From NCBI GenBank assembly GCA_016839515.1, contig JAEOUE010000265.1, positions 1 through 11,144 of the forward strand: DNA of 11,144 bases, read 5' to 3'. The notes beneath the pieces were generated by a model that made no database searches, was not told where the DNA came from, and saw only the letters and a program-made list of their open reading frames with translations. Shown here piece by piece: positions 3,138 through 11,144 of this stretch. Position numbers and translations under genes: made by a program. The DNA comes from Candidatus Hodarchaeum mangrovi (GTDB lineage Archaea > Asgardarchaeota > Heimdallarchaeia > Hodarchaeales > Hodarchaeaceae). Every line of letters begins with the position of its first letter. The first letter of the stretch is position 1.

Positions 3138-4043
3138 ATGGATATTAAAAAACAGGCATCAATTATTTGTTTATTGATAGGTTTACTATTTGCTTCCTTC
3201 ATAAGTCAAAGCTCTGCTCTACTTGTGTGGGATGAGGACTTTGAGAATCCCCCTTTTGATTGGTTTCTCCACAACTATAACTATACTGGAACATGGATAA
3301 ACACTCCAAATAATTTTCCCCCAATTATTGCTAATGGAGCTTTACATATGTCAACACCCAGTGAAATGTTAGCCTCTGCCATTCACAATAGCACAATCGC
3401 GTATGGAAGCTGGAGTTTTGATTTTCACATATCTTTTGATCAGATTCAAGAGAGTGTGAGTAGGATAATGTTCATTGGGAACAATTATGGTGGAGGAGAC
3501 CTTAATTTGACAGGGAAAGCGTACTCTTGGGCTAATAACCAGCCATCATCCTATGTCATTTATATCACATCTGGAACTGATATGTGGGGTTTAACCTTTA
3601 ATACAATAACATTAAAGATCTGGAAACCAGGATATCCAACACATATTTGGGAAACCCTTGCTGATTATATGTTCTCTTCACCTATTATTGGTTCCCATAA
3701 TATGACCATCACCCGCAATTCTACTCAAGGAGAATTCCATGTCTATCTTGATTCAGAACATCTATTTCAAGTCAGTAATAATGAAATCAATACTTCAGAG
3801 ATTTTTGAGTTTGCTTCCTATATCGGAGATATTTCTTTTGATAATCTTACTGTGAATGACGAGACGACCACAAATACCACAACTACTACAACCCCCACAA
3901 CGACCACGATAACGACGATTCATACGTCATCAACCACAACATCCACAGCAATCCCTACATCAAATCCTACTAAGATTGAATTCGGTATAGTAATACTTGG
4001 TTTTATTATAAGTCTGCTCTTCATTCGGAAACGGAAACGCTGA
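3138..4043 (+). CDS. Secreted, C-terminally membrane-anchored cell-surface glycoprotein (beta-rich, possibly concanavalin A/LamG-like domain, Thr-rich linker)
   Basis: Sec signal peptide (MDIKKQASIICLLIGLLFASFISQSSA/), aromatic beta-strand-rich domain (VWDEDF, AYGSWSFDF, HNMTITRN...FHVYLD, ISFDNLTV), 8 N-X-S/T sequons, Thr-rich linker, hydrophobic helix and RKRKR tail. The fold assignment is inference. Confidence 0.85.
   Translation: MDIKKQASIICLLIGLLFASFISQSSALLVWDEDFENPPFDWFLHNYNYTGTWINTPNNFPPIIANGALHMSTPSEMLASAIHNSTIAYGSWSFDFHISFDQIQESVSRIMFIGNNYGGGDLNLTGKAYSWANNQPSSYVIYITSGTDMWGLTFNTITLKIWKPGYPTHIWETLADYMFSSPIIGSHNMTITRNSTQGEFHVYLDSEHLFQVSNNEINTSEIFEFASYIGDISFDNLTVNDETTTNTTTTTTPTTTTITTIHTSSTTTSTAIPTSNPTKIEFGIVILGFIISLLFIRKRKR
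3864..3962 (+). repeat. Low-complexity Thr-rich linker (ACN codon run)
   Basis: Encodes TTTNTTTTTTPTTTTITTIHTSSTTTSTAIPTS using mixed ACN codons, so the repeat is maintained at the protein level. Confidence 0.85.
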
Positions 4044-4478
4044 ATTCTCTCTCTAAAGACTGGATAATGACTCAGGACTTCTAGTGTTTAGATCTGTTCT
4101 AATTCAATTCATTCATCTCAATATTTCCATAGCTACTCCTTCTTTATATCGGATGGGTCAGATGTTGTATTTTTACTTAGCGAGACCATAATCATAACAG
4201 TATCATTTTAGAAATTCAATATTAATATTTGATGAAATAACTAGGTTGTAAAATTTGTTTAAAGAATGCAAGAAATTCGAGTAATAAATACAGGAAATTC
4301 ATTCTTTTTGTTTCAGAGGTCTAGAAGTAGTTCTTTCATTTCATAAATCAGGTTAGAATTGAGAAAATCTTCTACCAAATTTGTACAAATCTTTCAAAAT
4401 TCAATTATTATCCAAAAGCTTTACATATGGTAATTTTTTTTGATACCAAATCTCCGATTTAGGAATGGAACTTCAACC

Positions 4479-6494
4479 ATGGATTTACTAGAGATTAAGA
4501 AGCTTATTGATCAAGGAAAATACCCTCAGGCATTAAAGTCAATAGAGGAATTGCAAGGAGAGGAGAGATTGGATGGAACAATTCTCAAAAGTCAAATATT
4601 CCAACGTAAAGGGGATTTAAAAGGAGCTCTAACAGAGGCAAAAAGAGTTCTTGAGGAATGTCGTGATTCTGGGAGTAATCTTCAAATCTTTAAAGCGCTA
4701 ATAAGCTTGGGATCTGCTCATTATTCCCTTCGAAATATTCCCGAAGTATCTGAAGTCCTTAAGGAAGCAGAAAATCTCTTTTTGCAAGTTGAATTTGAGA
4801 ATAATGATATTCGTCAAGAATGTCAGGGAATCCTAGCATTTTTACAGGCAGGTATAAGCGAGATTAAAGGAAACATCAACGAATCATTAGACTTGTTTGA
4901 GAAGAGCTTAATCATAAGACAAGCCCTCCCTTATCAGCATGATATAGTAGAAACATTAACTAAAATAGGTTTTATTCATTTAGATGTAACTGGAAAAAAA
5001 GAATTGGCTCTTGATCTTTTTAATCGAAGTTTAGCAATCAGTGAGAAACTAGGAAATCCGATTGCGAATGCTCACTCGCTTAACCGTTTGGGTTGTTATT
5101 ATCATTATATTGAAAATTATGATGAAGCCCTTTCTTACTTTGAGCGGAGTCTTGCGTTATATCAAGGAGTAGACAATAAAGAATGGATTGGAGGATTATA
5201 TAATAATATATCTCTTGTATATCGGGCTAAAGAAAACTATGATTTGACATTGAATTACTTAGAGAGAGCTTTAGCGATTTCTGAAGAACTTGAGGATAAA
5301 CGAGCCTTAATAATCAATCATAACAATATTGGATGGCTTTGTGCTTATAAAGGAGATTTGACTTCTGCTGAACATCACTTTTTACAAAGTTTACAGTTTG
5401 CAGAAGAGCTTGGAGATGTTCTTACTCAAGCTTTTGTATCTATGTTCATTGGTGATATTTACTCTATTTGGAAAGGGGAGCTTGTTCCTGGTTTGGATTA
5501 TTATCAACGAAGCTTATCAATATTTCAAGACTCCGAAAGTGATCCAGGAATTGGATGGATCCTACTTAGGATAGGATGGACACATATCTTACGTGGTGAA
5601 CCTGAGTCTGCATTAAAAAACATTGAAGAAAGTGAGCGTATCTTCACCAAACTTGATCTAAAGGGTGGAATTGCCAATTGTTTTGTTCAATTTGGTCGAA
5701 TCTATAAAATCTTAGGAAAATATGACCAAGCAATTAAATACTTGGAAAATAGTTTAAAAATAGTTAAAGAAACGATTATAGGAGCAAATTTGGGTATGTG
5801 GGTCTCTTATATTCTTCTTCAACTTATATTAGTAACTCAGGATCTCGATTCTTTGGATTTAGCTAAAGATTATCTCAAACAAATGCAAGAGCTTAAACAA
5901 ACAAGTAAGAATAATCTTGTGAAATTAAGAGTTCAGTTTTCAGAAGCTATAGTTTTAAAAATGAGTAAAAGAATGGCAGAGAAATTTCAAGCGCAACAGA
6001 ATTTTCAAGCTATTATTAAAGAGGAAATCCTTAGCCATGATATCACAATCTTGTCAATGTTAAATCTGTGTGAACTACTGATTCTAGAAATGAAATACTC
6101 TGAAACTGCAGATGAGCTGCTTGATAAAGTGACTCAGCTTTCAACACAGATTCATACTATTGCTGACAACCAACAATCTTCCTCACTGACAATATTGGCG
6201 CTGTTACTTCAAACAAAACTAGCTTTGGTACAAGGGGACGTTGAAGAGGCTAGCCATCTTCTAAGTAATGCGAAAAAAATTGCTAGTGAGAAGAATCTTA
6301 TCAATCTACTGGTTCAAATCAAAGTAGAACAGGAAACAGTACAAACTGAGCTCGATAAATGGAATCAATTAATACAACGAAAAGCTTCAATACAAGAGCG
6401 TGTTGAACATGCCCAAATAGCCAGCTGGTTAGTTGAAGCGAAGAAAATTCAGGAAACTTGGGTAAACCCAACCTCAGAGATTGCTAATCAGTGA
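4479..6494 (+). CDS. Tetratricopeptide repeat protein (long ~40-aa TPR units, MalT/TPR_12-like) with a helical C-terminal region
   Basis: Repeated units such as AHSLNRLGCYY..ENYDEALSYFERSLAL, GGLYNNISLVYRAKENYDLTLNYLERALAISEELED and NHNNIGWLCAYKGDLTSAEHHFLQSLQFAEELGD. The ATG at 4479 (MDLLEIKKLIDQGKY) is preferred over the TTG at 4440. Confidence 0.93.
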   Translation: MDLLEIKKLIDQGKYPQALKSIEELQGEERLDGTILKSQIFQRKGDLKGALTEAKRVLEECRDSGSNLQIFKALISLGSAHYSLRNIPEVSEVLKEAENLFLQVEFENNDIRQECQGILAFLQAGISEIKGNINESLDLFEKSLIIRQALPYQHDIVETLTKIGFIHLDVTGKKELALDLFNRSLAISEKLGNPIANAHSLNRLGCYYHYIENYDEALSYFERSLALYQGVDNKEWIGGLYNNISLVYRAKENYDLTLNYLERALAISEELEDKRALIINHNNIGWLCAYKGDLTSAEHHFLQSLQFAEELGDVLTQAFVSMFIGDIYSIWKGELVPGLDYYQRSLSIFQDSESDPGIGWILLRIGWTHILRGEPESALKNIEESERIFTKLDLKGGIANCFVQFGRIYKILGKYDQAIKYLENSLKIVKETIIGANLGMWVSYILLQLILVTQDLDSLDLAKDYLKQMQELKQTSKNNLVKLRVQFSEAIVLKMSKRMAEKFQAQQNFQAIIKEEILSHDITILSMLNLCELLILEMKYSETADELLDKVTQLSTQIHTIADNQQSSSLTILALLLQTKLALVQGDVEEASHLLSNAKKIASEKNLINLLVQIKVEQETVQTELDKWNQLIQRKASIQERVEHAQIASWLVEAKKIQETWVNPTSEIANQ

Positions 6495-6907: not shown

Positions 6908-8083
6908 TTACTCCATAACAGTCCAACTTTGATAGCCACAGAATGGACAAGCGGGATCCATATTTCCTTTCATAAGTATCAAAGATTCAAATTCTGATGT
7001 TTGAATCCCCCTGAGACATCGCGAACAGAATATGGAGTTATCTAGTTCTAGTGGGCTACCGCTTAGCATAGAATATGTACTAATGACTCTTCTAACCACT
7101 TTAGTTCTCGCTTTCCTTAATATAGTTGTGGCTCGTTCTTGATTGGAGAAGATTAAACCAAGACCTAGAAAGAACACCATGATTAATAAAAGGTCTAAAG
7201 AGAAATATCCCTCTAGTCTAGAGCTCGAACTTCCTATATAGAAGAAAATAGCAATTATACCTATCCAATGGAGATTATTCCACGTTCCTTTCATAATTTT
7301 ATTAAGATTATTTCCAATAAAGACTAAGCTAGCCTCAATAAACCTTTGAATAGCCCTACTAGCTATTTTAACAAAATGGAAGATACGTATTGGTAGATGA
7401 CGCAACCCAGTAATTAAGCTCTCAAATAATCCTTGAAGAGTATTCTTGATTAATTGTAATAATGCCCCAATTGCTGCTCTATATTGGTAATTACGAATAT
7501 AGAGGATACTCATGGTTGCTAAATTAACTATTTTATCATCCCAATCCGTTCTGTGAAGTGAGACACCCAAAATTATTAACAATAAGCCAAGAGGAATCAT
7601 TATGATATAATCTTCAAAGCTTGAGGGTAATCTAAAGATATGAGATAATATTTGAGTGAAAATGGGAAAAGCAAAGAATACTCCAGGGAGGAAAAAGAAG
7701 ATAATACCCATATCAGTTATCAGGACACCTAGAGCTCCCCATTCGGAGAACTCTCGCCATCGTAGTACATCGATCACAAATGCTAATATTAAAAAATAAA
7801 ATGGGAAAATAATGATTTGAATCAGGCGCTGTGTCTGTTCCTCTGATGTCTTCCCACCGTACCCAAAAATTACACCAAGAGCTAAGGAGAAAAAGAAGAT
7901 AACAATTCCTATTTGAGTAGCCCGGGAAAATGCCTTGGCATGATAAAATTCTGAAATTTCCTTCCTGACTTGAGTGATAAGAGCTTCTTGTTTCTTTGTT
8001 TTACTTGTCACTATTTCTGTGTGAGCCTTATAATCTTCTTCAGCTTGTTTTTTATCAAATCCTAACCATTCTTTGTCATTCAT
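6908..8083 (-). CDS. Hypothetical polytopic membrane protein (~6 TM, long amphipathic helix) with a C-terminal C4 zinc finger
   Basis: Charged N-terminus, about 4 TM segments, a long amphipathic stretch, a 2-TM hairpin, a basic helix, then CSRC-x22-CPFC. The start is placed at ATG 8083 (MNDKEW) because AAGGTGAG lies 4 nt upstream and the ATG overlaps the upstream gene's end (ATGAATGA). Confidence 0.85.
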   Translation of the reverse strand: MNDKEWLGFDKKQAEEDYKAHTEIVTSKTKKQEALITQVRKEISEFYHAKAFSRATQIGIVIFFFSLALGVIFGYGGKTSEEQTQRLIQIIIFPFYFLILAFVIDVLRWREFSEWGALGVLITDMGIIFFFLPGVFFAFPIFTQILSHIFRLPSSFEDYIIMIPLGLLLIILGVSLHRTDWDDKIVNLATMSILYIRNYQYRAAIGALLQLIKNTLQGLFESLITGLRHLPIRIFHFVKIASRAIQRFIEASLVFIGNNLNKIMKGTWNNLHWIGIIAIFFYIGSSSSRLEGYFSLDLLLIMVFFLGLGLIFSNQERATTILRKARTKVVRRVISTYSMLSGSPLELDNSIFCSRCLRGIQTSEFESLILMKGNMDPACPFCGYQSWTVME

Positions 8084-11000
8084 AAGTCTCACCTTTGTTT
8101 TTTTCTGCATAATTAGTTTCTGATGGGATTGTTTTTGTCATACGTGATCGTAAACTAGTTAGCTTTAATGGTTCTCGGTGTTTTGGATTGTATAGCATTA
8201 GCATTAATATCCCAAATGAACCAATTAGAATAATTCCAAGAATAATTAGTATTAATGGCTCTGCATCTTTCAAGAATCCTAGTAGGGATTCAACATTTTG
8301 GGGTGAATTCGCCTCTGGTTGAAACCACATTGCAATAGAACTCAGAACATCTCCTACAATATCAATGTTAAGTAAAAACCTAGACCAGTCCCCTAAAAAG
8401 GCGGAAGTGAGTAAAATAAATCCATATCCTATTGCCAAAAATGAAATTATTGCTATCAAAATTAGAAAAACCGAATTTAGTGACTGTTTTAGGTATTTAA
8501 TCAATTGATTTATTGTTTTTTCAACCAATTCTAATAAATTTTGAAGGAGTTTATTGAGAGCTACTATTATTTGTTTTATTAGGTCAATAATTTGAGTAAA
8601 CCAAGCAATTATTAAAACAAGTAGTCCTCCAATCCGAATAGTAATCTCAAGGGGAGCTGGAAGTTGTATACTTAAACTAAAATTGACAACTTCTGGTCCT
8701 AAGAGTAAAGCAAAACATCCAGTAAATGTAAGGAATCCGCGGAGAATCCCCCAACGGTGATCAATGAGATATTGGATAAATGAGTTTATTGCATTTGAAA
8801 TTGTTTTAATAATTTCTGCTATACTATTGATTATTTCTCTAATTATATTACCTATTAACGCATTAATTTGATGATTCCAAGTTATATACAATAGAATAAT
8901 CCCTATAAACCTAAAAACCACATCAAACGTATTTCCAAGTTCAATGCGACTCAATAATCGAATCAAAAATGTCCCAGTGAAGAATAAGAACACTCCAATG
9001 AATGTTAATCCTCCTCGGGCAATATTTCTTTGGTGATCTAGTATATATTGTATTAGATGTTTAAAATAAGCTGTCAGTGATTTTATTATTTGATTGAAAA
9101 GCTCGAGAGTTCTAAGATAGGTAATTTTCAATCTATGTCCAAATGCAATCAAAAAGTCGTGTATTTGGGTATACCAGGCAATTACCAATGGAATTACTCC
9201 CAAAATACGCAAAAATTCTAAAAATGGATAATAATTTCCAGAAAACAGCTCTAGATAAACTAATGGGGCATATAAAAAAATAATAATACTTGAGAATGTA
9301 AGGAGTCCACGAATGATATCCCACCAGTGATCTACGAGATATAGAATAAATATATACAATTTATTAACTGTTAATGAGATTATATGAGAAATTAATTTAG
9401 CAGCTTCTTTTATAAACTCAATGATGATATTTTTAAGGAGGTAAAGGATTTTTATTAATTCTTTGTGCCACAAATTTATATTTACTAGTAATGCTATAAC
9501 TAAAAAAGTACCAGAGATCATCCTTGAAGAATCTAAGGGATTAGGATTTATTAGAGAATATTTTAAGTATGATATAAAGCTTATGACCCCAAGAATGGTT
9601 GCTAATATTGTTCCAACTAGTTTCATATGCTTATGATGATACCATGCAAATATTGCTAAGAAAAAACCGCTTAGTGATATTATTACAGGAAATGAAATAT
9701 TAAGCGGTTCTTTTATGGTTAGAATGCCCACCAAGAACAAAATTAGACCTATAGTAGAAATTGTATACCTTATAATTTCCTGATAATTATATTCAATAAA
9801 ATTAAAAACCTGTTTAAGTATCTTAACTAGTTTATTGATAAAAAGGATTAATGAGATATAAATAGATTCTAGTGCAGATTTAATTATTATTCCTATGGCC
9901 GAGAAAATACCTATAAGTGCATTTTTGAGTTCTAATTTCCATAGATATAAGTTGACACTGAAGCCAACAACCAGATAAACTACAGAAAACTCAAAAGAAG
10001 GATTACTAAAAGCAATTGTAAAAGGAGAGAGACCAATTAATCCTAAGATAATGAGTATTGAACTGAGTACTGTACCATATCTTTTTACATTTGAGTGGTT
10101 GTACCAAGCTACTATTGCAATAGTGTATCCAGTTAGAAACAGAAATGTATTCAAATTATCTATTATCTGATACCAATAGATTGAGTCTATTACAATCATC
10201 AAGACGCCAATAGCAAAAATAATGTATCGAAAAATCAAGAATTTATGAATATTGAGAAGTAAGAGAACATTTTGGATTTTAAAAACTATAGATTTAACAA
10301 TTGACTCAACTAATCTGTGTATACCTCTAATGATACTCACAATAGCTAAATAAATTTCCTTTCTCCAGATTAAAACAAGATAACAAAATACTGAAAGTAG
10401 TAATATAGGAGGAAGCCAGCTTTCTATAGATTCAAATTCAAAAGGATATTGAATTATCAAAATAATGCTCCACAACAATAATAGAATACTTTCTGTTGAA
10501 GTTATACCTTTAAAATAGCGATGTCCAATCCAAACTGCTGAACCAGAGATATATCCTACTAAAAAGAGTATAATCGCTAGGAAGATAGAATTTGTTAATA
10601 AATTAAGCGAAATTGCAATAAAGATTGGAATAAGACTGAATACAAATATTATTATACGGACTATTAACGCAAAATGTATTTTAAACCAATAAATAAGTGG
10701 TTCATCAATACGTGTTAGCTCTATTAAAAATCCGAATATGCAAAGAACTAGTCCACATCCAAAAAGATAATCAGAGATCATATAAATTGGATGAATATTC
10801 AATTCAGGTAAAAGATCAAGGATTCCAGGTATAATTGCGATAAATAAACCGAATAGTCCAATTAATCCCCCAAATGATGAATTTCGGTTTCTTTCCATCT
10901 TATTTATAAAACGAAGATGAAAAAATGTAATAACTAAATTCATGCTAAATAGAGTAACCAGAAAATAGTGTAGAATTGTTCTTACGATTGTGAAGTCGAT

Positions 11001-11105
11001 ATTTCCGATTTTCCATGTTAAAATGGTTTGAAAAATTAGCAGTGTGACTGCTATCATTGCTGCACCTTTGGTAGATGCTTTAAGAGTAGATTCCCACGAC
11101 CTCAT
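8076..11105 (-). CDS. Large hypothetical polytopic membrane protein (~24 TM by eye) with six internal hairpin/amphipathic-helix repeats
   Basis: Uninterrupted 1011-codon, very hydrophobic ORF with recurring H/N-x5-R and G-x7-W motifs. Of three tandem ATGs (11111, 11108, 11105), the third has the best spacing (7 nt) from AGGAG at 11113-11117. Confidence 0.88.
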   Translation of the reverse strand: MRSWESTLKASTKGAAMIAVTLLIFQTILTWKIGNIDFTIVRTILHYFLVTLFSMNLVITFFHLRFINKMERNRNSSFGGLIGLFGLFIAIIPGILDLLPELNIHPIYMISDYLFGCGLVLCIFGFLIELTRIDEPLIYWFKIHFALIVRIIIFVFSLIPIFIAISLNLLTNSIFLAIILFLVGYISGSAVWIGHRYFKGITSTESILLLLWSIILIIQYPFEFESIESWLPPILLLSVFCYLVLIWRKEIYLAIVSIIRGIHRLVESIVKSIVFKIQNVLLLLNIHKFLIFRYIIFAIGVLMIVIDSIYWYQIIDNLNTFLFLTGYTIAIVAWYNHSNVKRYGTVLSSILIILGLIGLSPFTIAFSNPSFEFSVVYLVVGFSVNLYLWKLELKNALIGIFSAIGIIIKSALESIYISLILFINKLVKILKQVFNFIEYNYQEIIRYTISTIGLILFLVGILTIKEPLNISFPVIISLSGFFLAIFAWYHHKHMKLVGTILATILGVISFISYLKYSLINPNPLDSSRMISGTFLVIALLVNINLWHKELIKILYLLKNIIIEFIKEAAKLISHIISLTVNKLYIFILYLVDHWWDIIRGLLTFSSIIIFLYAPLVYLELFSGNYYPFLEFLRILGVIPLVIAWYTQIHDFLIAFGHRLKITYLRTLELFNQIIKSLTAYFKHLIQYILDHQRNIARGGLTFIGVFLFFTGTFLIRLLSRIELGNTFDVVFRFIGIILLYITWNHQINALIGNIIREIINSIAEIIKTISNAINSFIQYLIDHRWGILRGFLTFTGCFALLLGPEVVNFSLSIQLPAPLEITIRIGGLLVLIIAWFTQIIDLIKQIIVALNKLLQNLLELVEKTINQLIKYLKQSLNSVFLILIAIISFLAIGYGFILLTSAFLGDWSRFLLNIDIVGDVLSSIAMWFQPEANSPQNVESLLGFLKDAEPLILIILGIILIGSFGILMLMLYNPKHREPLKLTSLRSRMTKTIPSETNYAEKNKGETYE
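8088..8095 (-). promoter_or_regulatory. Archaeal-type Shine-Dalgarno site (GGTGA) inside the 3' end of the upstream gene
   Basis: The minus strand reads AAGGTGAG-ACTT-ATGAATGA. Confidence 0.7.
8472..9341 (-). repeat. Three intragenic short repeats (type B, ~92-98 aa, 2 TM plus amphipathic helix)
   Basis: YLVDHWWDIIRGLLTF / YILDHQRNIARGGLTF / YLIDHRWGILRGFLTF and RILGVIPLVIAWYTQI / RFIGIILLYITWNHQI / RIGGLLVLIIAWFTQI. Similarity is still visible in the DNA (8724-8771 vs 9294-9341, 570 nt apart). Confidence 0.88.
9342..10688 (-). repeat. Three intragenic long repeats (type A, 143-153 aa, ~4 TM plus amphipathic helix)
   Basis: AVWIGHRYFK / VAWYNHSNVK / FAWYHHKHMK and YLVLIWRKEI / VNLYLWKLEL / VNINLWHKEL (ORF residues ~142-590). 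Confidence 0.8.
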
Positions 11106-11144
11106 CATCATTCTCCTATGTGAAACATTTATCTAGAAAATATC

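Follow-up and report, generated by a model that had tools for sequence, protein, structure and literature searches.

The largest open reading frame of the window, by which we mean the whole 11,144-nucleotide stretch of DNA that was analyzed, encodes a membrane protein of a new family that is absent from the libraries and papers searched. The gene (positions 8076 to 11111, minus strand) specifies 1,011 amino acids with about 24 predicted transmembrane (TM) helices, arranged as an N-terminal cap, six modules, and a C-terminal cap. Its six modules are genuine internal repeats of two kinds. We tentatively propose that the protein is a non-enzymatic structural scaffold of the membrane, or a membrane-shaping protein. 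A sequence-only reading of this DNA had described six tandem modules between positions 8472 and 10688, corresponding to amino acids (aa) 142 to 880, each a TM hairpin followed by an amphipathic helix, and had drawn an analogy to reticulon and REEP proteins. That layout is indeed present, repeated, and conserved across the family. Two module classes, conserved caps, a zinc ribbon partner gene, and surface protein neighbors had gone unmentioned and are described here.

Architecture of the protein and its internal repeats

The N-terminal cap (aa 1 to 140; positions 10692 to 11111, minus strand, as are all segments of the protein given below) contains four TM helices and a basic cytoplasmic loop. 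It includes a family-conserved motif that ends in TRIDEP, immediately ahead of module 1, and residues N70, R74, E131, and D136 are invariant in the family alignment. Three long modules of 143 to 153 residues follow, each holding four TM helices, in two hairpins, and an amphipathic helix. The first, M1 (aa 141 to 283; 10263 to 10691), has a hairpin running from R152 to W194, a second hairpin, and a helix at about residues 249 to 288. The corresponding helices of M2 (aa 284 to 436; 9804 to 10262) and M3 (aa 437 to 589; 9345 to 9803) lie at about residues 392 to 441 and 546 to 594, respectively. The three short modules, of 92 to 98 residues, each consist of one hairpin and one amphipathic helix. 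They are M4 (aa 590 to 687; 9051 to 9344; hairpin R601 to W646), M5 (aa 688 to 779; 8775 to 9050; hairpin R699 to W745), and M6 (aa 780 to 871; 8499 to 8774; hairpin R791 to W837). The 39-residue amphipathic helix of M5 (residues 746 to 784) is a separate helix in the structure model, and that of M6 continues in the model into the first TM helix of the C-terminal cap. In this cap (aa 872 to 1011; 8079 to 8498), two TM helices enclose a loop some 45 residues long, and the second of them is followed by a basic tail on the cytoplasmic side; the loop is acidic and conserved and is the only sizeable conserved element of the protein that faces outside. The repeat region thus delimited holds nine hairpins, six of them bearing a helix. 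A short-module profile matches both hairpins of every long module, with the fuller match to the second hairpin and its helix, and the basic unit is therefore the hairpin.

The modules had originally been recognized by two motifs, H/N-x5-R at residues 146/152, 289/295, 442/448, 595/601, 693/699, and 785/791 and G-x7-W at residues 186/194, 328/336, 482/490, 638/646, 737/745, and 829/837, and every one of these positions is exact. H/N-x5-R also occurs at residues 70, 338, and 524, and G-x7-W also occurs at residue 383. Over 1,000 shuffles, the nine H/N-x5-R matches compare with a mean of 2.2 and a maximum of 7, and the seven G-x7-W matches with a mean of 1.1 and a maximum of 5. The two motifs 30 to 40 residues apart occur seven times in the protein, against a mean of 0.02 and a maximum of 1 in the same number of shuffles; the seventh combined instance, at 338, is the second hairpin of M2.

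Pairwise Smith-Waterman comparisons (200 shuffles) gave z values of 7.4, 3.7, and 16.0 among M1 to M3 and of 10.2, 19.3, and 17.4 among M4 to M6, and in all six of these within-class pairs the observed score was reached by none of the 200 shuffles. The nine long-versus-short pairs were weaker (z, 0.3 to 6.0), with no shuffle reaching the observed score in only two of the nine. BLASTP without composition correction aligned M2 with M3 at an E value of 6e-20 and M5 with M6 at 1e-16. The description of six hairpin-helix modules is thus borne out as to their being repeats but not as to their uniformity, three having two hairpins and three having one. The amphipathic stretch said to follow each module is found in all six, with peaks of the 18-residue hydrophobic moment of 0.59 to 0.77. 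At the DNA level, repeats within the gene are weak, the longest being 57 nucleotides (nt) at 77%, and the module duplications in this gene must therefore be old; a recent module expansion was considered and dropped on the same ground.

A family with a variable number of modules

A phmmer search of 1.84 billion representatives returned 38 proteins at an E value of ≤0.001, the query included, with lengths of 134 to 1,554 aa. In the alignments of these relatives, the N- and C-terminal caps are conserved and the middle is variable. In a set of 23 short modules drawn from six genomes, R12 and G50 never vary, and conservation is 90% or higher at I10, T16, G19, L54, Y55, W58, and N63; by virtue of this conservation, the motifs of the sequence-only reading constitute the module signature of the family. 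The conserved residues lie in the first arm and near the ends of the hairpin, and module alignments across the family show no conserved acidic or basic intramembrane residue. Both caps, flanking modules with the R...G-x7-W signature, were found in 20 distinct complete members, which measure 408 to 1,465 aa and in which 2 to 11 hairpins were detected. The number of hairpins follows protein length in these 20 proteins (r = 0.89), as counted by a profile that runs low, finding eight of the nine hairpins in the window's protein. A survey of repeat number in homologs had been suggested as a check on the scaffold proposal, and the number does vary. The shortest of these members, of 408 aa, can be read as complete with two modules. 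No stand-alone module was found among 2,650 candidates of 45 to 172 aa with the 23-module profile, and within its own genome the module profile matched only the open reading frame described here.

Uncharacterized orthologs occur in MAGs of Hodarchaeales and Heimdallarchaeia, for example ACFFB2_04610 (Promethearchaeota archaeon) and loci in CP070665.1 and CP070695.1. They share with the window's protein the N-terminal cap, the module signature, the C-terminal cap, and the downstream zinc ribbon partner, but they are only 22 to 38% identical to it and differ in how many long and short modules they have and in how these are ordered. Among the 21 other genomes of this GTDB genus, combined searches found relatives in 13; the genomes surveyed include several incomplete ones. 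None was found in a phylum-wide sample of 280 other genomes or in 19 other genomes of the class, and the module profile likewise matched none of 61 class genomes outside the genus. The occurrence in only 13 of the 21 genus genomes marks the protein as dispensable within the genus, and the confinement of the family to one genus-level lineage argues against its being the ancestor of eukaryotic reticulons. Public records that hold relatives carry the names Candidatus Heimdallarchaeota, Hodarchaeota, Hermodarchaeota, and Promethearchaeota, and those with relatives of the partner carry the name Candidatus Hodarchaeales. The sequence-only reading had called its proposal notable if the host were an Asgard archaeon, and by these names the host is one.

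Membrane topology

Basic residues mark the cytoplasmic side of membrane proteins, a regularity known as the positive-inside rule. In 180 short and 40 long modules, lysine and arginine concentrate at the module starts, past the closing tryptophan, and periodically in the linkers, and aspartate and glutamate concentrate in the hairpin loops. Taken together with the rule, this distribution places the linkers in the cytoplasm and points the hairpin tips outward. Across 131 linkers, the hydrophobic moment was 0.56 ± 0.11, versus 0.37 for shuffled sequences, and every one of the 131 lay above its own shuffle mean. The linkers contain 4.4 lysine and arginine versus 1.8 aspartate and glutamate residues per 36 aa, and they are 55% hydrophobic with 0.2% proline. 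The topology and hydrophobic moment predictions that had been proposed for this protein thus point to cytoplasmic linkers, with the strong moments already given for the six in the window. A crude heuristic puts the median length of the hairpin arms at 18 aa, with loops of 6 aa. An arm of this length is enough to cross a bilayer, and a wedge effect does not follow from it.

Gene neighborhood

A gene encoding 400 aa (positions 6908 to 8110, minus strand) overlaps the end of the repeat protein gene by 35 nt. Its product carries TM helices and a TM hairpin, an amphipathic region some 85 residues long, and an invariant CxxC...CxxC zinc ribbon. The orthologs of this product additionally contain long tandem repeats that are soluble, as well as further zinc ribbons. 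An ortholog of this partner abuts or overlaps the stop codon of the repeat protein gene in all five complete loci. The full-length partner is encoded in 12 of 21 genomes of the genus; all 12 also encode the repeat protein, and in 11 of them the two genes are adjacent on the same strand. In three further genomes the partner is reduced to remnants that contain stops, and one genome has only a fragment of the repeat protein. The partner is not recognized by the family libraries Pfam, NCBIfam, PADLOC, and PHROGs, and its profile gave a single chance row against PDB sequences (E = 0.32). We considered that the partner might be a relative of the repeat protein and rejected this: module HMMs gave no match to the partner at an E value of ≤1, and the best BLASTP E value was 0.29. 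A complex prediction with aa 1 to 283 and aa 780 to 1011 of the repeat protein and the partner gave an unspecific score, the same as that of a control in which chain 1 was replaced, and has no weight on either side of the question of binding.

Upstream of the repeat protein gene, the window extends for only 33 nt. A second contig of the same assembly, C172, overlaps this end of the window over about 655 nt and differs from it at 42 of 621 coding nucleotides compared (about 93% identity); of the codon changes, 18 are synonymous and 16 nonsynonymous. On C172, two NosD-like beta-helix genes lie directly upstream of the repeat protein gene. In the loci of three relatives, an upstream gene overlaps the start of the repeat protein gene, and the encoded proteins begin with a signal or an anchor at the N terminus, include extracellular domains (NosD-like beta-helix, F5/8 type C, and C-type lectin), and end in a TM anchor that is conserved. 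Two other relatives' loci have no surface protein gene directly upstream.

Such neighbors suggest surface anchoring as much as membrane shaping. They argue for a possible platform in the cell envelope, in which the repeat protein would dock or organize the neighboring beta-helix and lectin surface proteins through the loop of its C-terminal cap, the zinc ribbon partner would connect it to the cytoplasm, and curvature would be irrelevant. The overlap of genes for TM-anchored surface proteins with the start of the repeat protein gene in three relatives, the two beta-helix genes in the organism's own genome, and the fact that the C-terminal loop is the sole conserved stretch facing outside all fit such a platform. 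However, two loci lack a surface protein gene directly upstream, the partner being the only invariant neighbor, and the need for 2 to 11 hairpin-helix modules with basic cytoplasmic helices is left unexplained. We consider this platform possible but on balance rather unlikely.

Structure models and database searches

AlphaFold2 modeled the full-length protein as all helical, with a pLDDT of 68.4 and a pTM of 0.33 and with the linkers as the least confident parts, and it modeled aa 688 to 1011 with a pLDDT of 86.8 and a pTM of 0.44. At these pTM values, no confident compact packing of the modules is predicted. In the model of aa 688 to 1011, helices break at W745, H785, and W837, which indicates that the motif residues mark the junctions between TM segments and linkers. 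The sequence-only reading had described the linkers as long amphipathic stretches, which their hydrophobic moments uphold. Of the six, three are drawn in the full-length model as continuations of a TM helix (residues 371 to 441, 552 to 621, and 838 to 906), with a linker pLDDT of 41 to 50, and residues 838 to 906 again form a continuous helix in the shorter model. As modeled, the linkers could extend away from the membrane instead of lying in it.

Projecting linkers might pack, together with the amphipathic region of about 85 residues in the partner, into a helical bundle beneath the membrane, to which cytoplasmic factors would be brought by the partner's zinc ribbons and soluble repeats. The long straight helices that AlphaFold2 extends from the TM helices are in keeping with an adaptor of this type, as are the hydrophobic content of the linkers, their 3- to 4-residue spacing, which also suits helix-helix packing, and the long soluble repeats and extra zinc ribbons of the partner orthologs. 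However, the linkers are net positive and poor in acidic residues, which sets them apart from typical soluble coiled coils, and the packing between helices is not confident in either model. A cytoplasmic adaptor seems improbable.

A Pfam scan of the repeat protein found no family at an E value of ≤0.1, reticulon and REEP families included. NCBIfam gave only a chance-level row of 13.6 bits, PADLOC and PHROGs gave nothing, the PDB sequence search gave no match, and the ESM Atlas gave no usable match. A fold search, which had also been proposed, returned no transporter or channel fold for either model. Foldseek gave no row at an E value of ≤0.001 with either model (best E values, 0.27 and 1.7), and the best VIA Z scores (full model, 10.8; aa 688 to 1011, 7.9) are below the helical-noise level of that tool, the best rows being generic helical hairpins or designed repeats.

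Piezo proteins have in-plane amphipathic helices and curve the membrane. The Piezo blade consists of nine 4-TM helical units per subunit (PMC9532583), and the long modules, as 4-TM units with flanking amphipathic helices set in tandem in one very long chain, loosely resemble it. Piezo1, Piezo2, and PEZO-1 also appear among the nonsignificant Foldseek rows (E, 0.3 to 1; TM-score, about 0.07), with E values of 0.3 to 0.55 and TM-scores of 0.07 to 0.09 for Piezo1 and Piezo2. However, the repeat protein shows no sign of the pore, cap, anchor, and beam of Piezo, and half of its modules are 2-TM units. A transporter, channel, or Piezo-like mechanosensor built of repeated 4-TM units is very unlikely, given that there is no Pfam, NCBIfam, or PDB sequence match, no fold match by Foldseek or VIA, no conserved charged or polar intramembrane residue, no visible pore-like module, C terminus included, and a unit number that varies from 2 to 11.

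A putative membrane scaffold

A structural scaffold is the function that we tentatively favor. The variable module number fits a scaffold better, in our judgment, than it fits an enzyme or transporter. The conservation of the hairpin ends in the absence of any conserved charged intramembrane residue argues in the same direction, as do the basic amphipathic linkers and the lack of confident compact packing. In the scaffold that we envisage, the conserved 4-TM N-terminal cap and 2-TM C-terminal cap enclose a variable chain of TM hairpins, with arms of about 18 residues bounded by an interfacial arginine and the closing tryptophan. Basic, strongly amphipathic helices of about 36 to 50 residues join the hairpins, all on the predicted cytoplasmic side. 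The hairpins would act as membrane inclusions, and the helices, which may lie on or in the cytoplasmic leaflet, would space them along the chain. Together with the zinc ribbon partner, which may bind it physically, the repeat protein would form a scaffold of tunable length that stiffens, orders, or perhaps bends patches of the cell membrane. Such a scaffold may also tie the membrane-anchored surface proteins to the cytoplasm.

The layout can be compared with that of the reticulon-homology domain (RHD) of FAM134B, which has the order hairpin, amphipathic helix, hairpin, amphipathic helix, with helices of 5 to 6 turns (PMC6542808). The repeat protein repeats this hairpin-helix order, and its hairpins have the median of 18 aa per arm given above. 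As in reticulons, REEP proteins, Yop1, and FAM134B, both hairpin ends would lie in the cytoplasm and a cytoplasmic amphipathic helix follows the hairpin. Charge bias places both ends inside; there are nine hairpins here versus two in the RHD, and judged from sequence they may span the membrane or only wedge into it. The cytosolic amphipathic helix of the reticulon type is found. However, the repeat protein has no sequence match to reticulon proteins, the family has up to 11 units per chain rather than two hairpins, the 4-TM and 2-TM caps and a dedicated zinc ribbon partner are added, and the location would be an archaeal cell membrane. We infer that the protein has an iterated reticulon-like topology, a likeness of layout without detectable homology, and it is from this analogy that membrane bending is suggested. 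More specifically, the protein might actively shape or stabilize curved membrane in Hodarchaeales as a lineage-specific skeleton of tunable length, a chain of reticulon-like wedges with a cap at either end that works with its partner, at sites such as the bases of protrusions, vesicles, or invaginations. We regard so specific a role as unlikely.

Possible membrane shaping in Hodarchaeales

Cultured Hodarchaeales are described as having branching protrusions and vesicles (bioRxiv 10.1101/2025.02.26.640444), and intracellular vesicles are reported for a Heimdallarchaeia enrichment (bioRxiv 10.1101/2025.11.06.686947). A survey of factors that shape the endoplasmic reticulum (ER) traced reticulons and REEPs back to the last eukaryotic common ancestor; it describes no archaeal counterpart, having covered eukaryotic proteomes only (PMC9804665). 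In the full-text literature searched, we found no description of an Asgard protein with hairpins and amphipathic helices or of an Asgard membrane-shaping hairpin protein. The repeat protein is thus a concrete candidate for an archaeal protein that shapes or organizes membrane through a hairpin-plus-amphipathic-helix layout. Eukaryotes are already known to use the working principle to which it points; the protein family itself is undescribed in the sources searched, and it offers a clean case of a new modular membrane protein family. If the proposal is true, archaea would have convergently invented a principle that eukaryotes use for shaping the ER. Convergence is favored over ancestry by the narrow distribution of the family, and for the same reason the bearing on eukaryogenesis is limited.

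DNA nearly identical to that of the window is present in sediment and soil metagenomes from seven studies, and the 23 sequencing runs listed with such DNA include no RNA data set. Contigs from four runs, in four studies, carry near-identical pieces without joints and break off inside the repeat region.

Partner orthologues and gene neighborhood

Orthologues of the partner, the zinc-ribbon membrane protein encoded directly downstream of the repeat-built target, were found at four loci of relatives that also carry the target (L012, 13495 to 16716; L013, 13456 to 17694; L014, 3990 to 6227; L015, 13858 to 16599). These proteins are 745 to 1412 aa long and have soluble tandem repeats of ∼35 to 40 residues each C-terminal to the conserved core, with a second, C-terminal zinc ribbon in three of the four. 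Other partner orthologues have an N-terminal zinc ribbon in place of the C-terminal one. Apart from the zinc ribbons, the partner orthologues had no Pfam match.

A winged-helix HTH_34 gene and an unannotated gene of ∼230 aa recur as a pair a few kilobases upstream of the target, both in the relatives (L012 to L017) and on C172, a contig of the window's own assembly (locus L019, 3569 to 3937). Genes that recur downstream in relatives encode a short-chain dehydrogenase and an ABC pair of the MacB/FtsX type. In the window, the partner gene converges with a gene for a 684-aa TPR-repeat protein (4440 to 6494, + strand; TPR_12, E value of 1.7e-48), which relatives do not conserve beside the target-partner pair.

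Age of the module duplications

In P0009, a 1,230-aa relative of the target, three successive long modules are nearly identical, which indicates that tandem duplication occurred recently in that lineage. Internal DNA repeats in the window target gene reach at most 77% identity over 57 nucleotides, and its own modules are thus old.

Overlap with contig C172

The end of the window (10456 to 11144) overlaps by ∼655 nucleotides with the end of C172 (L019, 13526 to 14180). The two differ at 42 of the 621 coding nucleotides compared (∼93% identity), and the encoded proteins are 92% identical over target residues 1 to 207. The overlap represents either a strain variant or a second copy; the assembly has a contamination rating of 6%.

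Other genes in the window

A 301-aa open reading frame (3138 to 4043, + strand) looks like an archaeal surface protein: its start resembles a signal peptide, and it has a Thr-rich linker and a C-terminal transmembrane helix with a basic tail. It has no reliable Pfam family, its single match falling far below the cutoff. Positions 3 to 2772 contain small-enzyme genes unrelated to the target finding, namely, an ICMT/PEMT-like methyltransferase fragment, a GNAT acetyltransferase, a SAM methyltransferase, and a nucleotidyltransferase whose N terminus resembles aminoglycoside-2''-adenylyltransferase.
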